A program made the position numbers and the translations under genes. 64,000 bases of DNA from a virus, in IMG/VR virus record IMGVR_UViG_3300045988_180913; one strand, given 5' to 3'. The notes beneath the pieces are model-generated. The model was not told the origin of the DNA. It searched no databases and saw nothing but the letters and a program-made list of their open reading frames with translations. Positions 2,133 to 33,376 of this stretch are shown piece after piece (positions within the stretch are counted from its first letter, which is position 1; every line of letters starts with the position of its first letter).

Positions 2133-2351
2133 TTGAAAGAAGGAATATCTTATATAACTTTAAAAAATATTTCAAAAATAATAAAAAGCACAGAAGAAGA
2201 GGTAAAAGAAATTTTTGATAATTCTTCTTTAATTGAACCAATTAATTCTGACTTGGTTTTGTCAAAGAGAAATATGGCATATAATAAAATAAAAGCTGAA
2301 ATTAAAAATTTTAAAAAAGAAATAAAAAAGAAAAAAACAGAGGAGGAATGA
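2133..2351 (+). CDS. hypothetical protein
   Basis: 72-aa ORF with a TTG start preceded by AAGAGGT. Confidence 0.5.
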   Translation: MKEGISYITLKNISKIIKSTEEEVKEIFDNSSLIEPINSDLVLSKRNMAYNKIKAEIKNFKKEIKKKKTEEE

Positions 2352-2352
2352 A

Positions 2353-2580
2353 ATGGAAAACGGGTTTAAAATTATATCAACATGTAATATTACACAAAAT
2401 AAACAACTTGTAATATCAAAGAATAAAAATGATGAAATAGTGGTTGCAAAAAGATTTACAGTATTTGATGAAGGGTTTGAAAAATTTATTTATGAAAAAG
2501 GTGCTACAATTTTAAACATAGATGAATTTAAAAAGCTTATTGATAATGTAAAAGAATATTTTTTATATGAAGAAAAATAA
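2353..2580 (+). CDS. hypothetical protein
   Basis: 75-aa ORF. GGAGGA RBS sits 6 nt upstream. Confidence 0.6.
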   Translation: MENGFKIISTCNITQNKQLVISKNKNDEIVVAKRFTVFDEGFEKFIYEKGATILNIDEFKKLIDNVKEYFLYEEK

Positions 2581-2589
2581 AGAAAACTA

Positions 2590-2618
2590 TTTACAAAAGC
2601 ATTTATATGTGTTACTAT
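2590..2618 (+). promoter_or_regulatory. sigma-A-type promoter (family copy P2)
   Basis: CTATTTACA box. TTTACA (2590-2595), 17 nt, TGT-TACTAT (2610-2618). Confidence 0.6.
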
Positions 2619-2698
2619 TAATATAGAAAATAATAAAAATCTAAAAAACCTTTAAATAAAATAAAGGTTAGAAAATGAAAAAGAAAAGAGGTATAAAA

Positions 2699-3208
2699 AT
2701 GGCTAAGAATTGGACAGTAAGTGAAGTAGTAAATGAAATTATGAGTGGAAACAAGAATGAAGTTTTCACAGATGCAGGTAAAAGATTTCCTAATGCAGTT
2801 GCATTAATTAATGGAGTAATTTGTGGACTTTCTAATGAAGATGCAAAGGAAGCATTTAAGGAATTAATGGGTGCAATGCCAGATTGGGCTACCGCAAGAA
2901 AGATTGAAGGTGCTTTTAAGGCAAAGGCTTCTGAAGATGATTCTGATGAAGATGAAGAAGAGGAAAAGAAAACCACAAAGAAAGCAAGAAAGACACCTGC
3001 AAAGAAAACTAAGAAGGCTTCTGATGACGACGATGACGACGATGATGAAGAAGAGGAAGACGATTCTGACGAAGATGAGGATGATGAAGAAGAGGAAGTA
3101 AAGAAGCCTGCAAGAAAGTCTAAGAAAGCATCTGCAAAAAAGACTACAAAAAAGTCTAAGAAGGTTGAGGAAGACGACGAAGATGATGACGATGATTGGG
3201 ACATCTAA
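2699..3208 (+). CDS. block-polyampholyte protein: globular N-domain plus alternating poly-D/E and histone-H1-like K-rich tracts
   Basis: ORF 2675..3208. The likely start is ATG 2699, after AAAGAGGT. Sequence contains DDSDEDEEEE, KKTTKKARKTPAKKTKKAS, DDDDDDDDEEEEDDSDEDEDDEEEE, KKPARKSKKASAKKTTKKSKK, and ends EEDDEDDDDDWDI. The gene has its own promoter and terminator. Confidence 0.75.
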   Translation: MAKNWTVSEVVNEIMSGNKNEVFTDAGKRFPNAVALINGVICGLSNEDAKEAFKELMGAMPDWATARKIEGAFKAKASEDDSDEDEEEEKKTTKKARKTPAKKTKKASDDDDDDDDEEEEDDSDEDEDDEEEEVKKPARKSKKASAKKTTKKSKKVEEDDEDDDDDWDI

Positions 3209-23859: not shown

Positions 23860-23868
23860 AAAAATCTA

Positions 23869-23897
23869 TTTACAAACACTCTACATTGTGTTAGAAT
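23869..23897 (+). promoter_or_regulatory. sigma-A-type promoter (family copy P5)
   Basis: TTTACA (23869-74), 17 nt, TGT-TAGAAT (23889-97). The 47 nt at 23861-23907 are identical to 26601-26647. Confidence 0.75.
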
Positions 23898-23961
23898 ATA
23901 AATATAAAGGAAAAGGAAAAATTAGGAAATAAACTTAGGTAAATAAAAAAATAGGAGGTTT

Positions 23962-24899: not shown

Positions 24900-25754
24900 A
24901 TGAAAAAGAAAAAATTTGATGCTTCAAATAGAATAGAGCAAAAATATACAACATTATTAAATAGATTATTAAAGCCAATAAAAAAAGAAGCTCTTAAATA
25001 TGTAAATGATAAAAGTAAATTTAAAAAAGTTTTAGAAAATGCTGCAAAGTCAAGAACTTATAAGAAAAAAGCAAAAGAAATTGTAAAGACTATTTCAACT
25101 ATGATTTATGAAAGCAATTCAAAAAGTTGGAGAGAAGCAGCAAGAAAAAGTAGTAGAGGAAAAGAAATAAAGCAAAGCATAGAAAAAGAAATTGAGGGTA
25201 ATGTTAAAAAAAGAATGGATGAATTATTTAAATATAATGTATCATTAATTGAAACATTACCTTCAAAAATATCAGAAAATGTTATAAATCATATAAATAC
25301 AGAATCTTTTAAAGGAAAAAGAGCAGAGGATATATCAAAAGAAATAAAAAGATTTTTTCCTGAAAATACAAAAGCAAATGCTAAATTAATAGCAAGAACT
25401 GAAACAAGTAAATTTAGTTCAGCATTGACACAAGTGAGATCAGAAGACCTTGGAATTTATTGGTATGTTTGGAGGACCTCAGAAGATGTATCAGTGAGAA
25501 GCTCTCATAAGGTAATGGAAAATGTATTAATAAATTATAAGTATCCAGCATCACCAGAGAGTCTTGATAAAAGACATAAATATAAAAAGATACCATTACC
25601 ATATCATGCAGGAAATATATACAATTGCAGATGCTATCAAGAACCCCTGGTTGATTTAAATGATGTAAGATGGCCACATAAAGTATATAACTGGAAAACA
25701 AAAAACATAGAAATGATGACATTGGATAAATTTAAGAAAGAATTTTTGCAATAA
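24900..25754 (+). CDS. head morphogenesis protein, SPP1 gp7 / Mu F family
   Basis: ARTETSKFSSALTQVRSEDLGIYWYVWRTSEDVSVRSSH...YHAGNIYNCRCY is the MuF signature. Confidence 0.85.
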   Translation: MKKKKFDASNRIEQKYTTLLNRLLKPIKKEALKYVNDKSKFKKVLENAAKSRTYKKKAKEIVKTISTMIYESNSKSWREAARKSSRGKEIKQSIEKEIEGNVKKRMDELFKYNVSLIETLPSKISENVINHINTESFKGKRAEDISKEIKRFFPENTKANAKLIARTETSKFSSALTQVRSEDLGIYWYVWRTSEDVSVRSSHKVMENVLINYKYPASPESLDKRHKYKKIPLPYHAGNIYNCRCYQEPLVDLNDVRWPHKVYNWKTKNIEMMTLDKFKKEFLQ

Positions 25755-25775: not shown

Positions 25776-26543
25776 ATGCTTGATTATTATAAAATAATTA
25801 AAATATTTGATGAAGATTTTGATGAAGAAAAACATCCAAGAGATAAATCGGGGAAATTTGTTAAAAAATCAAAAGAAAGCCAAAAAGGTCATAATGTCAT
25901 AAAAAATAAAAAATATTCAAGTGAAATGGTTGATCCATATTATATTAAACCTATAAATGATATAACTAATAAAAATAAATATAATGCTTTATTATATGAA
26001 TTTAAAAATAATGGTTATAATGGTAGACCAATATTAGCTATTGAAACATCTAAAGGAGAATATGAAGCTTTAACTGGAAGTCATAGAATATTAGCTGCTA
26101 AAAAAGCTGGCATAGAAATACCTGTTAAAGTTGTGGAATATAAAAAAGGAATGCAAGAATTGCTGGATGCAAATGATGATGATGAAAGAGAAAAGATATT
26201 AAAAGATTTGTATAAAAAAAGAAAAATAGATAAAGAATCATTAGATTTATTTATTGAAGAGCAAAATAGAAATTATGATGATATTGAAAGTAAAAAACTT
26301 GAAAAAGAATATGTAAAAAAGTCTAATAAATTAAAAGAGCAAGAAAAAGAAGAAAAAGAGGCAATAAAAAATAAAAATAATAAAGAAAATGATAAAAAGT
26401 ATGAAAAAGAAATGAAAGAATATAAAAATTTTTATAAAGATATGGTGGAAAAATATGGAGAAGAAAAAATGTATAGTGAAATGACAGATCCAGAGATTGA
26501 TAAGTTATTCTTATTAGAATCAAAGGCATATGGGAAATGCTAA
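25776..26543 (+). CDS. putative packaged cargo: leader + HPR..G.F linker + ParB-like nuclease domain + K/E-rich tail
   Basis: MLDYYKIIKIFDEDFDEEKHPRDKSGKFVKK, followed by NGYNGRPILAIETSKGEYEALTGSHRILAAKKAGIEIPVKVV (ParB N-domain). Confidence 0.7.
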   Translation: MLDYYKIIKIFDEDFDEEKHPRDKSGKFVKKSKESQKGHNVIKNKKYSSEMVDPYYIKPINDITNKNKYNALLYEFKNNGYNGRPILAIETSKGEYEALTGSHRILAAKKAGIEIPVKVVEYKKGMQELLDANDDDEREKILKDLYKKRKIDKESLDLFIEEQNRNYDDIESKKLEKEYVKKSNKLKEQEKEEKEAIKNKNNKENDKKYEKEMKEYKNFYKDMVEKYGEEKMYSEMTDPEIDKLFLLESKAYGKC

Positions 26544-26608
26544 TTTTTTAAAGAATTTAATGGGTATAAATAATTTTAGAAAAAAATCTTAAAATTTAAT
26601 AAAATCTA

Positions 26609-26637
26609 TTTACAAACACTCTACATTGTGTTAGAAT
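26609..26637 (+). promoter_or_regulatory. sigma-A-type promoter (family copy P6) with conserved leader
   Basis: Identical core to P5. TTTACA (26609-14), 17 nt, TGT-TAGAAT (26629-37). The leader ends TAGTTAAAAATTTAGGAGGA. Confidence 0.75.
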
Positions 26638-26691
26638 ATAAATATAAGGAAGGAAATAAAAAAATAGTTAAAAATTTAGGAGGAAATAAAA

Positions 26692-26979
26692 ATGAAAAAG
26701 TATTTAGCAATTGGTCATTTTAAAGAATCAAAAAATTTAACTTCTATTGCAATGAAAGCTACAACAAAAGAAAATTTTGTAAAGAATATGTTAGGCAATG
26801 AATTTGTTGCTTATGTAATAATTACAGAAAAAATGATGAATAAAATTGAAAGTATGTGTGGAATGGATTTGTTTAATCAGGTTAAGAAAATGACTACAAA
26901 TTATCGTAGATGGAATGATGTTATTGAGTACATTGAACAATGCTATGATATTATGGAAGATAGAATGTGTAATGCATAA
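26692..26979 (+). CDS. hypothetical protein
   Basis: 95-aa ORF after the P6 leader. Confidence 0.6.
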   Translation: MKKYLAIGHFKESKNLTSIAMKATTKENFVKNMLGNEFVAYVIITEKMMNKIESMCGMDLFNQVKKMTTNYRRWNDVIEYIEQCYDIMEDRMCNA

Positions 26980-27015
26980 TAAATAAATTTAGATAAAATA
27001 TTTGGAGGTAAAATT

Positions 27016-27159
27016 ATGTATAGGCTGGAAGTAAAGTTAGGAAGAAAGTGGAAATTAGGTTTGGTGGTTTATAAAACATTAGAGGATGCAAATGAAAGAG
27101 CTGAATATATGAAGCTTGTTGGACATAAAGTAAGAATAATTGAAGATTGGGTAAAATAA
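27016..27159 (+). CDS. hypothetical small protein (47 aa)
   Basis: GGAGGT RBS. Sequence MYRLEVKLGRKWKLGLVVYKTLEDANERAEYMKLVGHKVRIIEDWVK. Confidence 0.45.
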   Translation: MYRLEVKLGRKWKLGLVVYKTLEDANERAEYMKLVGHKVRIIEDWVK

Positions 27160-27188
27160 AAGAAAAAAAAGAGGAGTGAAAGAAAAAA

Positions 27189-27452
27189 ATGATTAATATT
27201 AACTCTGCAACAAATGTATTTAAAACAATGGATGCTGAAATAGGAAAGAAAAGAAAATATATTGCAGGTTTTGTTCCTGATAAAAATGCTGATAAAAGTT
27301 CAGTGTTTACAAAATATAAATTTTTTGAGTTTGAAAGTGAGTCATCAGCTGGGACAAATAAAAATTATGAAGATGCTATTAAAAAGGCAAGAGCATTATA
27401 TGGTTCAAAAGTTGCAAATGAAATTAAAATTGATGTTATAAGATTAGCTTAA
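27189..27452 (+). CDS. hypothetical protein
   Basis: 87-aa ORF with a GAGGAGTGA RBS. Confidence 0.55.
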   Translation: MININSATNVFKTMDAEIGKKRKYIAGFVPDKNADKSSVFTKYKFFEFESESSAGTNKNYEDAIKKARALYGSKVANEIKIDVIRLA

Positions 27453-27475
27453 AATAAAAAATAAGAAGTTAAGAA

Positions 27476-27823
27476 ATGCTTGAATATGATAAAATAATAA
27501 ATGTTTTTGTAAGAGATGCTAAATTTGAATATGAAAATGGAAAAAATCATTTTATAAAAAGGAAAAAGAGAAATGATATTCCAAAAGATATGGGTTTAAG
27601 TAAATATTTTAAAGAATCAGAAAGTAGATCTTTAAAAGATATTGATGGGAGAAAAGTAAGAGCATATACTTCAAATAATAGAACAGTTAAAAATGATGGA
27701 GAGTGGACAACTGTTTATGTTGGTGGTAAAAGAGGTAAACTTATTTCTTCATACCCACAAACAAAAGAAAGATTTGAAAATGTTATGAAAAGGGATAAAG
27801 GCATAGAGATATATAAAGAATAG
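27476..27823 (+). CDS. putative packaged cargo protein of unknown function (shares N-terminal leader)
   Basis: MLEYDKIINVFVRD is a leader paralogous to those of 25776 and 28838. Small and basic; a toxin or nuclease fold is possible but not recognisable by eye. Confidence 0.5.
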   Translation: MLEYDKIINVFVRDAKFEYENGKNHFIKRKKRNDIPKDMGLSKYFKESESRSLKDIDGRKVRAYTSNNRTVKNDGEWTTVYVGGKRGKLISSYPQTKERFENVMKRDKGIEIYKE

Positions 27824-27840
27824 AAAAGAGGTAGAGAAAA

Positions 27841-28005
27841 ATGAAATTAAGATTTATTATGAATAAAATTTTATTTTTAATTTGTATTGTACCAAATTAT
27901 ATTGAGTATAGAATGTTGTTAAAAGAAGGTTGTGTTCAAAAAGGTTTTTTTAAAGGTTTTTTTGAAGATTATAATGGTGTAGGATTTGAAGATGAGGTTT
28001 GTTAA
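27841..28005 (+). CDS. small hydrophobic protein (54 aa)
   Basis: AGAGGTAGAG RBS. TAAATG coupling to the next gene. Below the track cutoff. Confidence 0.35.
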   Translation: MKLRFIMNKILFLICIVPNYIEYRMLLKEGCVQKGFFKGFFEDYNGVGFEDEVC

Positions 28006-28833
28006 ATGATATTATTAAATACAATAGCTGGTGATATTATTGGCTCAAAATATGAATTTAGCAATATTCATAGCAAAGAATTTGAATTATTTCAAGATGA
28101 TATGCATTATACTGATGATACAGTGTTAACTATTGCAACAATTGATGCATTGCTGGAAATAAATAAAAGATATACAGAAGAAAGTTATGAGTTTGAAAAA
28201 GATATAGATGAAAAGCTTATATCTATTTTTAAAGAAAAATATTATGAATATGGAAATAAATATAATAATATTAATTTAGCATATGGTGCAAACTTTTTAA
28301 AGTGGTTATCATTTCAATATAAAAAAGCATATCCATATAATAGTTTTGGAAATGGTTCAGCGATGAGAGTTTCACCAATTGCATGGTATTCAAAAACTTT
28401 AAAAGAAGCAAGGTTGTTAGCAAAATGTTCTGCTTTTGTAACACATAATCATACACTTGGTATAAAAGGTGCAGTTGATATTACTGAATCAATATTTAAA
28501 TTATTAAATTATAATGCAGATAAAGATGACATAATAAAGGAATGCAAATATATTGTTCCAAGTAATATTTCAAAAGTATTATTTGATGAAACTTGTGAAG
28601 GAACAATACCATATGCTTATAAATGTTTTGTTGACTCCGAATCAACTGAAGATGCTATAAGAAATGCTATAAGTTGTGGAGGGGATTCTGATACTTTAGG
28701 TATAATTACTGCTTCATTAGCTGAAGCATATTATCCAGAGGATGAAGAAATATCAAAAAATGTATTAAGATATTTGGAAAAAGAATTTATTTTAAAAATA
28801 AATGAGTTTAATAATGTTGTAGCGAAAAGGTGA
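28006..28833 (+). CDS. ADP-ribosylglycohydrolase (ARH/DraG family)
   Basis: AGDIIGSKYEF, HYTDDTVLTIA, FGNGSAMRVSPIAW and CGGDSDTLGIITASLAEAYY are the ARH family motifs. Confidence 0.85.
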   Translation: MILLNTIAGDIIGSKYEFSNIHSKEFELFQDDMHYTDDTVLTIATIDALLEINKRYTEESYEFEKDIDEKLISIFKEKYYEYGNKYNNINLAYGANFLKWLSFQYKKAYPYNSFGNGSAMRVSPIAWYSKTLKEARLLAKCSAFVTHNHTLGIKGAVDITESIFKLLNYNADKDDIIKECKYIVPSNISKVLFDETCEGTIPYAYKCFVDSESTEDAIRNAISCGGDSDTLGIITASLAEAYYPEDEEISKNVLRYLEKEFILKINEFNNVVAKR

Positions 28834-28837
28834 TGGT

Positions 28838-29560
28838 ATGCTAAATGATATTGTAAAAGTATTTGATGGTGGAGAAGGATCAGGCCATTTTAATCATGTA
28901 GGAATACCAAAGCATAAAGGTGGCTCTGCAAGAAGTGGAAAATTTAAAAGTGAGCAAAATAAACAATTTAAAGAAGGTCATATAGAAACAAAAGGTAAAA
29001 GTAGAAAAGCAAAGATAAGAAAAAGAATAAAAGGTGCAACAAGTGATGAAGTTGAAAGGTATTCAAAGTCATTAGAAGCATACACAGGTATATTTTATGA
29101 TGATATAAAGAAAGCTTATAGAAACAAGTATTCAGGTAAAAAAGTTGATAAAGGTTTTGAAAAATATTCAAATGATTTGGATGATTTTATTTATAGGTCA
29201 GAAAAATATGAAGGCACAATATATAGAGGATTAAGTCTTACAGAAAAGGATGCTTCAGAAATTATACAAAATTTAAAAAAAGGTAAGACAATGGATATGC
29301 AAGGCATATCAAGTTGGAGTTCAAATAGAAATATTTCTATTAGCTTTGCAGATACAAATGATAAAGAAAAAGAAATATGTTTATTATTTAATGTCGAGAA
29401 TAAATCAGGAACTTCAATAAGAGAATTATCTGAATTTCCAATAGAAGATGAAGTTCTGCATCCAACAACATCAAGGTATATTTTAAAGGATAAAAATTTT
29501 AAAGTAAAAACTTTATCGAGCGGAAAAAGATTAATAGAAGTAAATTTAAAAGAGGTATAA
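28838..29560 (+). CDS. ADP-ribosyltransferase (R-S-E, C3/VIP2 exoenzyme type) with cargo leader and linker
   Basis: MLNDIVKVFDGGEGSGHFNHVGIPKHKGGSA leader and linker. R in TIYRGL, STS-like ISSWSS, and E.E in FPIEDEVL. Confidence 0.8.
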   Translation: MLNDIVKVFDGGEGSGHFNHVGIPKHKGGSARSGKFKSEQNKQFKEGHIETKGKSRKAKIRKRIKGATSDEVERYSKSLEAYTGIFYDDIKKAYRNKYSGKKVDKGFEKYSNDLDDFIYRSEKYEGTIYRGLSLTEKDASEIIQNLKKGKTMDMQGISSWSSNRNISISFADTNDKEKEICLLFNVENKSGTSIRELSEFPIEDEVLHPTTSRYILKDKNFKVKTLSSGKRLIEVNLKEV

Positions 29561-29562
29561 AA

Positions 29563-30048
29563 ATGGCAAAAGGTTTAAGTTTATATGAAAAGTGGAAGAA
29601 AGATAGTGAGTATGAAAATCCTGTAGGTTTTTCTGAACAAAAAATGAATAAAACAAGTGATGAAAAAATATTAGGAATGATTGACAAATTGGATGAACTT
29701 GAAGATAAAATAAATAATAATAAAGTTTCAAAAAAAGAAATAAAGAAAATAAAAAAAAATGTAGATGAAATGATTGAAGAATTAAATGTTTTGAATGAAA
29801 ATGAAATAGAAAATAAATTAGATGAAGGTCTACCATCTGAGTCAGGTAAATATAATGGTATGAATTATGAGGAAATTTTGTCAAGAGCTTTACAAATGGA
29901 AAATGATGCTGTTGAAATTAATTTGATGTTATTGGAAATTGCACCTGATGAAGATAGAAAAAAGTTTGTAGAAATAGCAAATGATGAAAATGATCATAGT
30001 TTAATATATCAAGGAATTATTAATAGATTGCAGGGCACAAGTAAATAA
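29563..30048 (+). CDS. hypothetical protein, C-terminal ferritin/rubrerythrin-like helix pair (weak)
   Basis: ALQMENDAVEINLMLLEIAPDEDRKKFVEIANDENDHSLIY. Confidence 0.35.
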   Translation: MAKGLSLYEKWKKDSEYENPVGFSEQKMNKTSDEKILGMIDKLDELEDKINNNKVSKKEIKKIKKNVDEMIEELNVLNENEIENKLDEGLPSESGKYNGMNYEEILSRALQMENDAVEINLMLLEIAPDEDRKKFVEIANDENDHSLIYQGIINRLQGTSK

Positions 30049-30060
30049 AGGTGAGAAACT

Positions 30061-30420
30061 ATGGACAATAAAGAAAAAATAGTAAAATTATTAAATATAA
30101 AATATGATGCATATAAAGAAATATTAGAGAGAAATTATGAATTAAAGTTTAAAAATTATTTTGAAAAATATGAAAATAGCTTAGATGTAATTAAAGCAAG
30201 AGAAAGACTTAACAAGTCAAAATTAAAAAATAGAGAATTATTTGAAGAATTTTTAGAAGCTATAAGGTATGTAGACTATAATAGTATAGATAAAAAAGAA
30301 AGAAATGAATTAATAAGACAATATGAAGATAAGTTTAGAGAAAATATAAAAGAAATAAATAAAAATCAATATATAATTTTTAATGAATTTTTAATAAAAC
30401 ATGAAAAAAGTAAAAAGTGA
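30061..30420 (+). CDS. hypothetical coiled-coil protein
   Basis: 119-aa K/E-rich ORF. Confidence 0.55.
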   Translation: MDNKEKIVKLLNIKYDAYKEILERNYELKFKNYFEKYENSLDVIKARERLNKSKLKNRELFEEFLEAIRYVDYNSIDKKERNELIRQYEDKFRENIKEINKNQYIIFNEFLIKHEKSKK

Positions 30421-30481
30421 TAAAAATTGTAAATAGGTAAGGTGATATTCATGGTAAGCATAAGAAGCCCAAACTTTACTA

Positions 30482-30510
30482 TTTACAATTTTTATTAATT
30501 GTATTAAAAT
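30482..30510 (+). promoter_or_regulatory. sigma-A-type promoter (family copy P7)
   Basis: ACTATTTACAAT. TTTACA (30482-87), 17 nt, TAAAAT (30505-10). Lies upstream of the capsid module. Confidence 0.6.
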
Positions 30511-30536
30511 ATAATTAAAGTGAGGGTGATAATGAA

Positions 30537-31835
30537 TTGGCTAAAGCACATTTTGGTTCAAAGATAAGTCCTAATATGAAACGTACTCCTGAAGATTTTT
30601 TAATTTGTTATAATGTGCCAATAGCAAGAACAGGGGTACAAAAATATTTAGGAAAAGAGTTAGGGTTGAATGATAGAGCCGACGAAATAATAAAAGTGTA
30701 TAGAACAGAGGAAGAAGTTTTTAATCCAAAGACAATAGCTTCATTTGAAGGAAAAGTATTTGTTGATGAGCATCCAAATGACTGGGTAACACCTTTGAAT
30801 TTTCAAACATATGGGAAGGGCACAATAACTAATGTTAGAAGAGGTGTCGGAAGAGATAGTGATTTATTGCTGGCAGACATTATAGTTTATAATTTAGCAC
30901 AAATAGAGGAAATAGAGAGCAAACAAAAAAGAGAAGTATCTTGTGGGTATGAATGTGAATATGTGCCTTATAAAGATGGGTATGCTCAAAAAAATATTAT
31001 AGGTAATCATGTGGCTCTTGTAAATGCAGGAAGAGCAGGAAGTAGAGTTGCTATAAAAGATAATAAGATAAATGAATTAAAGGGAGGTAACAAAAAAATG
31101 GGTGAAAATAAAACCTATAGAATACCAAGAAGACAAAAGACTTCTGAGTTTCTTCAGGCTGTTGGTTTAAAGCATGTTGCAATGGATGCTGATCCTGAAG
31201 ATATTATGGATGCTATGTATGATCTTGTTGAAGAGAAAAAGGTTGAGGATGAAGAAAAAGAAGTTCAACCTGCACCTCAGATAAAGAGTGAAGAAGAAAA
31301 GATGAATAATGATGAAGATGTGAAGGAAGTAAAGGAAGCTTTATCAAGTGTAAAGGATGCTCTTTATTCTATTTTAGCTTCAAATTATACAAAGGATGAG
31401 GAAGCTGAAGAAAATGAGGAAGGCATGGAATCACTTGATGAATTAGAAGAAGAATTAGAAGAAGAAGTAGAGGATGCTGAAATTGATGAAATTGAGTCAA
31501 TTGAAGAACCGGCTGAAGAAATGAATAAGGATGAAGATTATGAATTGGATGAAGTAGAAAAGACAAAGGATTCTGCAATAGAATTAATGAGAGCTTTAAA
31601 ACCTATTATTGCTTATATTCCAAATAAAAAGGAAAGAAAGAGAGTGTCTGATAACTTAGCAAAAGTTCTTAAAAATCAGGTAAAAGATGCTAAAGCAAAG
31701 AAGAAAAATTCTTCTGTATATTCAAAGATTGTAAGTGGAAGAGCAAGTGATAGTGCATATAAAAATACTAATGAAGATATAGGTGCAAAGATTGCTGAAA
31801 TGTACAATCCACATTATAAGAAGGAGGTAAAATAA
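30537..31835 (+). CDS. prohead protease/scaffold protein (XkdF / DUF2213-like) with acidic coiled-coil C-half
   Basis: TTG start after GAGGGTGA. MAKAHFGSKISPNMKRTPEDFLICYNVPIARTGVQKY...VFVDEHP. Long E/D-rich scaffold-like segment. Confidence 0.7.
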   Translation: MAKAHFGSKISPNMKRTPEDFLICYNVPIARTGVQKYLGKELGLNDRADEIIKVYRTEEEVFNPKTIASFEGKVFVDEHPNDWVTPLNFQTYGKGTITNVRRGVGRDSDLLLADIIVYNLAQIEEIESKQKREVSCGYECEYVPYKDGYAQKNIIGNHVALVNAGRAGSRVAIKDNKINELKGGNKKMGENKTYRIPRRQKTSEFLQAVGLKHVAMDADPEDIMDAMYDLVEEKKVEDEEKEVQPAPQIKSEEEKMNNDEDVKEVKEALSSVKDALYSILASNYTKDEEAEENEEGMESLDELEEELEEEVEDAEIDEIESIEEPAEEMNKDEDYELDEVEKTKDSAIELMRALKPIIAYIPNKKERKRVSDNLAKVLKNQVKDAKAKKKNSSVYSKIVSGRASDSAYKNTNEDIGAKIAEMYNPHYKKEVK

Positions 31836-31836
31836 T

Positions 31837-32346
31837 ATGCCAGGTGCAGTTATTGGAAAAGCTTTAAATTTAGGATATATTGGCAAGATATCAAGAGATG
31901 GGGATGCAATTGTAACCAATAGAATTGTTTCCGGTGAAAGTGAAGCAATTGATTTTGGTGCAGCTGTATTTTTAAATGATGATAATACTGTAAGAAATGT
32001 TACAGTTACAGGTGATGTAGGTGAGGAAACATCTACTGATACAGTTGATAAGTTTGTAGGTATTGCTGTAGCTGAAGTTGTTCAAGCTACAGAATATACA
32101 CAGCAGGCTTCTGCATATTTAAAGAATAAGGGTTGTGATATTCTTGTAAGAGGTTCTATAATTGTTGAGATGGGTACAGGTACACCTAAAGCAGGCGGAA
32201 AAGTATTCTTTAATTTTGCAACAGGTAAGTTTGATGCTACAGAACCATCTACAAAAGGTTTTGCTATTCCAGCAAGATTTACGACAGGTTATGTTGATGG
32301 TAAAGGTGGAGTAGAAATTACAATTCTTGAAAGAAATCTTATTTAA
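31837..32346 (+). CDS. head decoration/cement-like protein (DUF2190-like)
   Basis: Lies between scaffold and capsid. FVGIAVAEV...GCDILVRGSIIVEM pattern. Confidence 0.5.
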   Translation: MPGAVIGKALNLGYIGKISRDGDAIVTNRIVSGESEAIDFGAAVFLNDDNTVRNVTVTGDVGEETSTDTVDKFVGIAVAEVVQATEYTQQASAYLKNKGCDILVRGSIIVEMGTGTPKAGGKVFFNFATGKFDATEPSTKGFAIPARFTTGYVDGKGGVEITILERNLI

Positions 32347-32371: not shown

Positions 32372-33376
32372 ATGTTTCACGGAAACAATCAAATAAAAAG
32401 AGTATTTGATAATGCTCCTGTAGTAAGAATGTCTGATAGTGCAATTGCTTCAGGATTAGCATTTTTAAATGGAGAACTTGAAAAGAGAGATCCAAAGCTT
32501 TATGAACCACTCACTTCTGTAACATGGATGAGAGATATTGTTGCTGATACAGGTGGTGGTTGGAGTGAATATACTTCGAATTATTTTGTTGATTATGCAA
32601 CTACAGGAAGTGGAACTTCTGGAATAGTTGGTGGTCAAACAAATGATATTCCAATGATGCAAGCAAATATCACAAAAGATAATTACAAGGTATTCTCGTG
32701 GGCTAATATTCTTAGAGTACCATTTGTTGACAATGAGCTCTTGAAGACCGTTGGAAGAAGTCTTGATGATATTCTTGATAAGGGTATTAAATTAAATTGG
32801 AATAAAGACCTTGACACAATGACATATGAAGGATATGATTCATTAGATATTCATGGTCTTGTAAATCATCCGCTTGTAGAAAACGAAATGGCACAAGCAG
32901 GTGCAGGAGGTGCTACTGAATGGAAGAAGAAGACTCCTGATGAAATTCTTGAAGATATTAATAGTGTTGTTGTTGAAACGTGGGAAGACTCTGAATATGA
33001 TTTAACTGGCATGGCAAATCATATTCTCATTGACCCATCTAATTATGCTTACATTGTAACAAGAAAAGTTTCTGAAGCTGGTAATATTTCAATACTCCAA
33101 TATATACTTGAAAATAATATTGCAAAGAATCAGGGAAGAGATCTTATGATTTATCCTTGCAGATGGTGTGCAGGTGCAGGTGCAAGTGACAAGAATAGAA
33201 TGGTTGCTTATGTAAATGAAAAGGAAAAGGTCAGAATAGACATTCCTGTAATGCTTGGAAGAGTAATGACTCAGCCTGATGTACAGCAAATGGCATATCT
33301 TACAGCATATGCAGGCCAAATTGGCCAGGTTAAGATTATGTACTATGAAACAATTAGATATAAGGATGGCATTTAA
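32372..33376 (+). CDS. major capsid protein (DUF2184 / HK97-fold type)
   Basis: 334 aa, GGAGGT RBS, positioned after the scaffold. LAFLNGELEKRDPKLYEPLTSVTWMRDI is typical of this capsid family. A terminator follows. Confidence 0.8.
   Translation: MFHGNNQIKRVFDNAPVVRMSDSAIASGLAFLNGELEKRDPKLYEPLTSVTWMRDIVADTGGGWSEYTSNYFVDYATTGSGTSGIVGGQTNDIPMMQANITKDNYKVFSWANILRVPFVDNELLKTVGRSLDDILDKGIKLNWNKDLDTMTYEGYDSLDIHGLVNHPLVENEMAQAGAGGATEWKKKTPDEILEDINSVVVETWEDSEYDLTGMANHILIDPSNYAYIVTRKVSEAGNISILQYILENNIAKNQGRDLMIYPCRWCAGAGASDKNRMVAYVNEKEKVRIDIPVMLGRVMTQPDVQQMAYLTAYAGQIGQVKIMYYETIRYKDGI

Follow-up and report, generated by a model that had tools for sequence, protein, structure and literature searches.

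A variant layout of the phage ADP-ribosyltransferase/ADP-ribosylglycohydrolase system in the head module of a human-gut phage

Introduction

ADP-ribosyltransferases (ARTs) of phages that come with a hydrolase as antidote have become an established class. The prophage MuF-ART toxin Bxa of Bacteroides stercoris kills E. coli and ADP-ribosylates arginine; the hydrolase BAH reverses the Bxa mark and rescues cells, its E15A variant is inactive, and Bxa is also neutralised by a binding protein, Bsi (Alexei et al., J Biol Chem 2024, PMC11699363). Bxa/BAH has been reported as a gut-colonisation factor. Here we describe an ART gene and the adjoining ADP-ribosylglycohydrolase (ARH) gene in IMG/VR virus record IMGVR_UViG_3300045988_180913, a stretch of 64,000 nucleotides (nt) that was analysed at its full length and is called the window below. 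To judge from their sequences and by analogy, the two genes are best read as an unfused version of the phage head-cargo ART toxin and ARH immunity module that Bxa/BAH typify.

Toxins of the MuF type, 14% of which are ARTs, have been described as exclusive to temperate phages, and their loading into the head and delivery with the DNA have been proposed (Jamet et al. 2017, PMC5576092). MuF-ART fusions were also noted by Iyer et al., for whom T4 Alt is the model of a packaged ART (PMC5512222). In Aeromonas phages, ART-ARG toxin-antitoxin pairs have been reported and are predicted to modify macromolecules (Iyer et al. 2022, PMC9503650).

Results

The ADP-ribosyltransferase

The window is nearly the whole genome of an uncultured human-gut phage with a G+C content of about 27% and all genes on one strand. 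ARH and ART lie between the gene for a short MuF protein and the genes for the prohead protease and major capsid protein. Their features are as follows (lengths in amino acids, aa).

28006-28833, plus strand: ADP-ribosylglycohydrolase (ARH, BAH-like), 275 aa, without a leader
28054-28056, 28111-28119, 28348-28368 and 28678-28695: in the ARH gene, codons of the catalytic glutamate E17, TDD, GNGSAMR and GGDSDT, respectively
28838-29560, plus strand: ADP-ribosyltransferase (ART), 240 aa
28838-28942, plus strand: ART leader, residues 1-35, disordered (pLDDT below 50), with the motif FDGGxGSGHFxHxGIPxHKGGSxRSG
29033-29560, plus strand: predicted R-S-ExE ART domain, residues 66-240, with R130 (29225-29227), S158-S159-W160 (29309-29317) and E203-x-E205 (29444-29452)

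The ART sequence contains Y129-R130-G131, S158-S159-W160-S161 and E203-D204-E205, and R130, G131, S158, S159, W160, E203 and E205 were invariant among 17 ART family members. Its AlphaFold (AF2) model had a mean pLDDT of 80.1 and a pTM of 0.81 and was confident from residue 36 on. With this model Foldseek matched Certhrax, C3, HopU1, VIP2, ExoS and Tre1 (6drh/6dre) at probability 1.00 (E = 2e-10 to 1e-7), as well as the ART of a Listeria ART-ARH pair (8za7_B, probability 1.00). The closest entries in a viral structure library were Alt and fusions of an ART domain to a portal, MuF or minor capsid protein. Motifs and modelled fold thus predict an R-S-ExE enzyme of the C3/VIP2/Alt fold. The Glu-x-Glu form of ARTs goes with arginine as the acceptor.

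In profile searches the window ART scored just below the curated Pfam cut-offs, with 20.6 against 22.3 bits for ART (PF01129) and 20.0 against 23.4 bits for ADPrib_exo_Tox (PF03496); several close homologues carry precomputed PF03496 or PF01129 matches. It matched phrog_16619 (4.5e-19) and phrog_832, 'RNA polymerase ADP-ribosylase' (6.9e-05). A specific homologue is the C-terminus of the MuF-ART protein of Porphyromonas phage005b (36% identity, E = 7e-9), and hhalign gave no significant match of the ART domain to the Bxa-type domain. Unfused proteins are not rare in this ART subfamily: 82 of its 150 best representatives are at most 320 aa long.

On a 12-kb metagenome contig (L029; 1035-1634 and 1613-4903), an ART frame follows that of the window for about 120 residues and then continues into unrelated sequence, with a 1096-aa fibre-like gene next to it. 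A swap of the toxin domain was considered and rejected: with the ART truncated near residue 120 and linked to the unrelated fibre-like gene, the contig is a probable chimera or rearrangement.

The leader motif

Despite its disorder, the leader is the most conserved part of the ART, with invariant columns at F9, D10, G11, G12, G14, S15, G16, H17, H20, G22, G28, G29, S30, R32, S33 and G34. The motif recurs elsewhere as (D/K)GGxGSG(H/N)(F/Y)xHxG(R/I)PxxxGGS (L008 3918-4925, L024 1961-4117, L034 10-2463, L040 4013-5998, P0203 and P0267). The Zeta-toxin cargo of the relative L008 has it N-terminally, and portal proteins have it towards the C-terminus, with an extra domain following directly (L024, 478/718; L040, 503/661). 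In fused proteins such as P0155 and P0237 it lies directly ahead of the ART domain, and it is also found at MuF-ART junctions. The 817-aa protein of L034 has three copies, and giant polyvalent proteins of 2217 and 2546 aa have seven to nine. The leader's first part (hydrophobic-K-hydrophobic-F-D) is also present in two further genes of the window, those at 25776 and 27476.

The motif recurs where portal or MuF proteins join their cargo and is therefore a junction element of head-anchored cargo; here it opens a stand-alone gene. Docking or processing may take place at it, and in the window it appears to replace the MuF fusion. A text search of the literature for the letters of the motif found no paper.

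The ADP-ribosylglycohydrolase

ARH matched PF03747 with 92.3 bits against a cut-off of 26.2, and phrog_6572, 'ADP-ribosylglycohydrolase', at 6.3e-41. Its motifs G9-D10..G13-S14..E17, T36-D37-D38, G115-N116-G117-S118-x-M120-R121 and G225-x-D227-S228-D229-T230 were unchanged in 13 homologues, and E17 aligns with E15 of the BAH orthologue of Bacteroides phage Versailles. It also matched 8za7_A (Lmo0067) at 1.1e-07. Since it scored far below the cut-off of the DraG equivalog TIGR02662 (33.5 against 337 bits), ARH is taken as a member of the superfamily only and not as a DraG orthologue. The protein begins at the strand with the catalytic GDxxGxxxE motif, as does every aligned homologue. With invariant catalytic motifs in both proteins and the predicted ART fold, both enzymes look active.

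These results bear out the observations of an earlier note on this DNA, made from the letters and open reading frames (ORFs). It had described a full-length hydrolase of the ARH/DraG family with all family motifs, ending 4 nt before an ART gene of C3/VIP2 type with YRG, SSWS and EDE motifs, and a cargo leader on the ART but not on the hydrolase. Profile scores and homologues agree on the hydrolase, Foldseek on the ART fold, and the ORF boundaries on the spacing; the asymmetry of the leader was likewise seen, with an invariant motif in ART residues 1-35 and an ARH that starts at its first catalytic motif.

An intact ART next to a frameshifted ARH was seen on three independent contigs (L006/L023, L007 and L032). 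The variants are an A run lengthened from A5 to A6 at 28195, an added G at 28303 and, on a contig covered 1.2x, a 5-bp deletion at 28304.

Predicted transcription unit and gene packing

Three copies of a promoter-like cassette (TTTACA-17-TAGAAT/TAAAAT) split the head module into units.

23866-23904: promoter-like cassette copy, identical over 39 nt to the copy at 26606
26606-26644, plus strand: 39-nt repeat, promoter-like cassette (TTTACA-17-TAGAAT with extended TG) that opens the predicted ARH/ART unit
30479-30517, plus strand: third promoter-like cassette copy, 74% identical, which opens the protease/capsid unit

The cassette at 26606 matches the sigma-70 consensus at 10 of 12 positions, and on this consensus match alone its promoter role is putative. 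Because cassette copies lie at both ends, ARH and ART are placed in one predicted late unit (26606-30479).

Genes in this unit are packed with gaps of 0-4 nt. The stop codon of a 54-aa ORF abuts the ARH start codon (TAA|ATG). At the ARH-ART junction, ...AAA AGG TGA tggt ATG, the gap is 4 nt and an AGGTGA Shine-Dalgarno sequence lies over the ARH stop codon. The ART stop codon, TAA, is followed after 2 nt by the ATG of a gene for a 161-aa protein. From the layout of the junction, ARH is predicted to be translationally coupled to ART.

Linkage of ARH and ART in relatives

Relatives with the same head module were taken from assemblies and metagenomes, and ART-linked ARHs were found in six sampled lineages. 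Loci are called ARH-less when no ARH lay within 6-7 kb of the ART in the fetched sequence. The arrangements were as follows.

Window clade; L008/L009/L028/L036; L017-L019; L059; L061: ARH adjoins ART on the upstream side
L060: order ARH-d161-ART, with the 161-aa gene in between
L010, L011/L012, L031: ART present, ARH-less

In the ARH tree the ART-linked ARHs of the phage clade formed one group with 100/99 support, apart from the ARHs of Bacteroidota phages and of cells. With the Porphyromonas domain as root, the ART tree grouped the sequences from ARH-less loci in a single clade (100/100 support). The simplest history suggested by these trees would be one acquisition of the pair followed by at least one loss of ARH. 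Across pairs, ARH identity (43-82%) ranks much like ART identity (53-65%). ART diverges faster (60-65% identity) than MuF and the protease (75-80%) and than ARH (65-82%). Among the sampled members of the phage clade, ARH was never seen without ART.

The locus L060 was considered as a further ARH-less one and rejected as such: its called 339-aa gene (2144-3163) consists of the 54-aa ORF, a run of 49 N bases and a complete ARH. On the public scaffold the record of this gene carries no Pfam match, which hid the ARH. One sample yielded both L060 and L061, whose MuF proteins share 95% identity but whose ARTs share only 62%.

Outside the phage clade, Bacteroides phage Versailles and Porphyromonas phage005b have ARH genes (36-38% identity) that adjoin MuF-ART fusions. 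These ARH genes are convergent with the toxin gene and are followed by one for a small protein of about 107 aa. The Versailles fusion has 869 aa with E818-N-E820, in agreement with Bxa numbering. Three large phage genomes carry a homologous ARH, and in these no ART was detectable with PF03496 or with our own ART family profile, for which a positive control worked. PF01129 was dropped as a genome-wide ART detector after it missed the positive control, the Porphyromonas phage.

The nearest cellular relatives of the ARH (43-47% identity) have a vWA-like protein as their partner and are found close to WYL regulators instead of ARTs. In two Oscillospiraceae-type loci (L013 1872-5792 and L016 3228-5795, about 44% identity) the vWA-like protein precedes the ARH, and WYL/WCX regulators or a Macro-domain gene adjoin it. 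These loci resemble ARG-centric host systems that are predicted to counter viral ADP-ribosylation (Iyer et al. 2022, PMC9503650).

The head module and the phage

The remaining genes of the head module were annotated as follows.

24900-25754, plus strand: short MuF (SPP1 gp7-like) minor head protein, 284 aa, no toxin fused
25776-26543, plus strand: ParB-like putative cargo protein (phrog_4715, ParB-like, 4.5e-06; N-terminal alignment)
26692-28005: several small ORFs
27476-27823, plus strand: 115-aa small protein with leader (MLEYDKIINVF...), kept after MuF in relatives
27841-28005, plus strand: 54-aa hydrophobic ORF, which precedes ARH in relatives
29563-30048, plus strand: 161-aa helical protein, no Pfam family
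30061-30420, plus strand: conserved protein of 119 aa, encoded after the cargo array and before the protease gene (phmmer matches in L059 and L060)
30537-31835, plus strand: prohead protease/scaffold-type protein of the Pa193_gp24 family (phrog_16985, 2.2e-106; phrog_530, 'head maturation protease', 4.7e-48)
31837-32346: 169-aa virion structural protein (phrog_563; homologues with Phage_cement or minor-capsid Pfam families)
32372-33376: major capsid protein

The MuF protein matched Pfam Phage_Mu_F at 7e-10 (40.1 bits against a cut-off of 29.6) and phrog_324, 'head morphogenesis', at 4.3e-50. Between MuF and ARH the module is a mosaic cargo array (window 25776-28005; L008 3084-5163; L059 4342-5124; L061 1710-3483), in which the equivalent place is taken by the ParB-like gene in the window and L061, by a leader-bearing Zeta toxin in L008 and by an N6-methylase in L059. 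The N-terminal leader of the ParB-like protein is related to that of the ART (MLDYYKIIKIFD...HPRDKSGKF). The 115-aa protein had phmmer matches in L031, L060 and L061, and homologues of the 54-aa ORF lie upstream of ARH in L008, L017, L060 and L061. The 119-aa protein had no family match in profile searches, Pfam and phrog included. Homologues of the prohead protease carry PF09979; this protein is a candidate for the enzyme that would process leader-bearing cargo by cleaving the leader.

Contigs of relatives are 64.2-65.1 kb long, so the window is slightly shorter. The phage has its own replication genes (DNA polymerase, primase, UvsX-like recombinase, thymidylate synthase and RNase H), and no integrase was found among the window ORFs scanned, a scan that covered part of them. 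By these gene contents the phage is probably virulent. The sole match bearing on the host lay in a metagenome-assembled genome named 'Anaerofustis sp.', on a phage-sized 68-kb contig with the same length and source as the phage contig L008, so the host assignment is tentative.

Discussion

Proposed mechanism

The reading that we favour, at a probability of roughly 0.55, is that ART is head cargo loaded by its leader and an injected effector, and that the leaderless ARH stays behind in the producing cell and erases the same modification there. Late in infection, one transcript from the cassette at 26606 would yield ARH and, via translational coupling, ART, which would act as an arginine-type (R-S-ExE) mono-ADP-ribosyltransferase. 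The disordered leader would most likely load ART into the procapsid, and the prohead protease may cut the leader. At the next infection ART would leave the capsid with the DNA and modify host proteins in the manner of T4 Alt. ART left unpackaged in the late phase would modify proteins of host or phage, and ARH would strip off this ADP-ribose. As the product of a predicted late gene, ARH would be absent when injected ART first acts in a new cell.

The earlier note had proposed ARH as an immunity partner of the ART. Co-inheritance of the two genes, the MuF-ART neighbours of homologous ARHs in other phages and the Bxa/BAH precedent favour such a role; the hydrolase does not appear to be obligatory, to judge from the ARH-less sub-clade.

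Several points weigh against the favoured reading. In the sub-clade of L010, L011 and L031 the ART has its leader and intact catalytic residues, yet no ARH lies within 6-7 kb of it, so these phages either can do without the antidote or rely on another protein in its place. Assembly errors or a real, circulating loss of ARH could account for the frameshifts in L006/L023, L007 and L032. Because three large phage genomes have ARH without detectable ART, the ARH family probably works outside ART pairs as well. The Pfam scores of the window ART itself lie under the curated cut-offs, and its target could be something other than protein arginine. The phage is known from its genes alone and its host is uncultured. 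Finally, the phage looks virulent: its host is doomed by late infection, and the selective case for protecting it is weaker than in the Bxa prophage.

Alternative explanations

The likeliest of the alternatives, although we regard it as unlikely, is a regulatory switch. Injected ART would retune host machinery such as RNA polymerase or translation factors to the benefit of early phage functions, and late ARH would erase the marks and so reset the cell for assembly and late gene expression, with protection being incidental. An apparently virulent phage with its own replication genes and no integrase among the scanned ORFs suits such a switch, as do the placement of ARH in the late head-module unit and its dispensability in one sub-clade, which would fit a modulatory role. 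Alt-type ARTs are among the structural matches, and T4 Alt is a packaged host-takeover enzyme (PMC5512222). However, no phage is known to employ an ARH in this way, and in the sole phage pair that has been tested the hydrolase is an immunity protein against a lethal toxin (PMC11699363). The position of ARH directly upstream of ART in the same unit is the usual layout of antidote then toxin. Sequence alone does not tell regulation from immunity.

A related and similarly doubtful proposal joins two ideas: the leader would be a portable tag for capsid loading and processing of cargo supplied in trans, and ART and ARH would form a time-gated writer and eraser, a takeover logic undescribed in phages. 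If the first idea held, a virulent phage would load the products of separate genes in trans, namely ART and the ParB-like protein here and a Zeta toxin or methylase in relatives. If the second held, injected ART would act first and late ARH would wipe its marks, which is not a simple toxin and antidote.

Somewhat less probable again is counter-defence, in which ARH would strip ADP-ribose set by an ART-based host defence, or degrade an ADPr-derived signal, and its adjacency to ART would be incidental. The known anti-DarT enzymes are of Macro or NADAR type, not ARH. Homologous ARHs in three large phage genomes with no detectable ART are consistent with a separate function, as are the WYL-regulated loci of the nearest cellular relatives, a type predicted to be conflict systems, and phage enzymes that undo host ADP-ribosylation are known in the case of DarTG (PMC11825919). 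In the phage clade, however, ARH always accompanied ART in our sample, and its predicted translational coupling to ART does not suit an incidental neighbour. As a late protein ARH would arrive when a defence had already acted, and it has no leader with which to be packaged. A PADLOC search gave no relevant match. The suggestion of the earlier note that ARH might act against DarT- or CmdT-type defence found no support in this search or in the linkage to ART.

A fourth explanation takes the 161-aa protein, or the 54-aa ORF, as the main antidote, a Bsi-like binding inhibitor or chaperone, with ARH only as a back-up. The 161-aa protein accompanies ART in every sampled relative, the ARH-less sub-clade included (L008, L010, L011, L017, L031, L060 and L061; in L059, 6793-7286, divided between ORFs of 69 and 84 aa). 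Its gene starts 2 nt past the ART stop codon, and Bxa, like Apk2, has an enzymatic immunity protein as well as a binding one (PMC11699363). We nevertheless consider this explanation improbable, the least likely of the four. The 161-aa protein is not homologous to the Bsi-like proteins from Versailles or Porphyromonas, and its AF2 model, an all-helical bundle or coiled coil of low confidence (pLDDT 67), would also suit a scaffold or assembly protein. Its gene always lies just upstream of the protease/scaffold genes, and among the relatives no close one is ART-less so as to test the linkage, the distant L040 having neither gene. The protein is a candidate for a partner of the ART or for a head-assembly protein.

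As a compact two-gene pair, ARH and ART are suited to asking whether the hydrolase confers immunity or is a timing device, and what the leader does.

Comparison with known systems

Phage T4 has, to our knowledge, no ARH partner for Alt. Like Alt, the window ART has an R-S-ExE active site and a putative N-terminal targeting region on what would be a standalone late protein, and delivery with the DNA is proposed here. It differs in its leader, a glycine-rich motif common to portal and MuF fusions, and in being known from genes alone.

The Tre1/Tri1 pair of the Serratia type VI secretion system (T6SS) and the Listeria pair (8za7) likewise join an ART toxin to an immunity protein of the ARH family; they are secreted interbacterial effectors and not phage head cargo. 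Tri1 additionally blocks Tre1 by binding. Tre1/Tri1 was the example cited in the earlier note, which missed the direct phage precedent, Bxa/BAH/Bsi. DraT/DraG and the ART-ARG pairs of Aeromonas phages share with the window the combination of an ART with a hydrolase of the DraG superfamily, a writer/eraser pair, and differ in having neither a head-module location nor a cargo leader. MuF toxins were described as a feature of temperate phages only (PMC5576092), whereas the window phage appears virulent.

The closest system is Bxa/BAH/Bsi. Both have an R-S-E ART in a head-morphogenesis region and a neighbouring PF03747 hydrolase with the same catalytic glutamate and metal motifs, and the window ARH is 38% identical to the BAH orthologue of phage Versailles. 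Unlike Bxa, the window ART is unfused, with 240 aa and a leader, lies about 3 kb downstream of a short MuF gene and has an ART domain of another subfamily. Its ARH is upstream on the same strand and predicted to be co-transcribed, whereas hydrolases of the BAH type are convergent and separately promoted, and the window ARH belongs to a clade separate from that of the Bacteroidota phages. No window ORF matched the Bsi-like proteins of Versailles or Porphyromonas (best E = 0.19), which leaves room for an unrelated binder.

The gene pair is a variant layout of the known phage ART/hydrolase system and opens no new category. It counts as a variant because its ART is unfused and of another subfamily, because it has an upstream ARH and no Bsi homologue, and because the phage carries replication genes of its own, with no integrase among the scanned ORFs. 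It extends the class to an abundant, probably virulent gut phage of Firmicute type; fusion of the toxin to MuF is dispensable, with a short conserved leader apparently standing in for it, and the hydrolase can be lost from lineages that retain the toxin.

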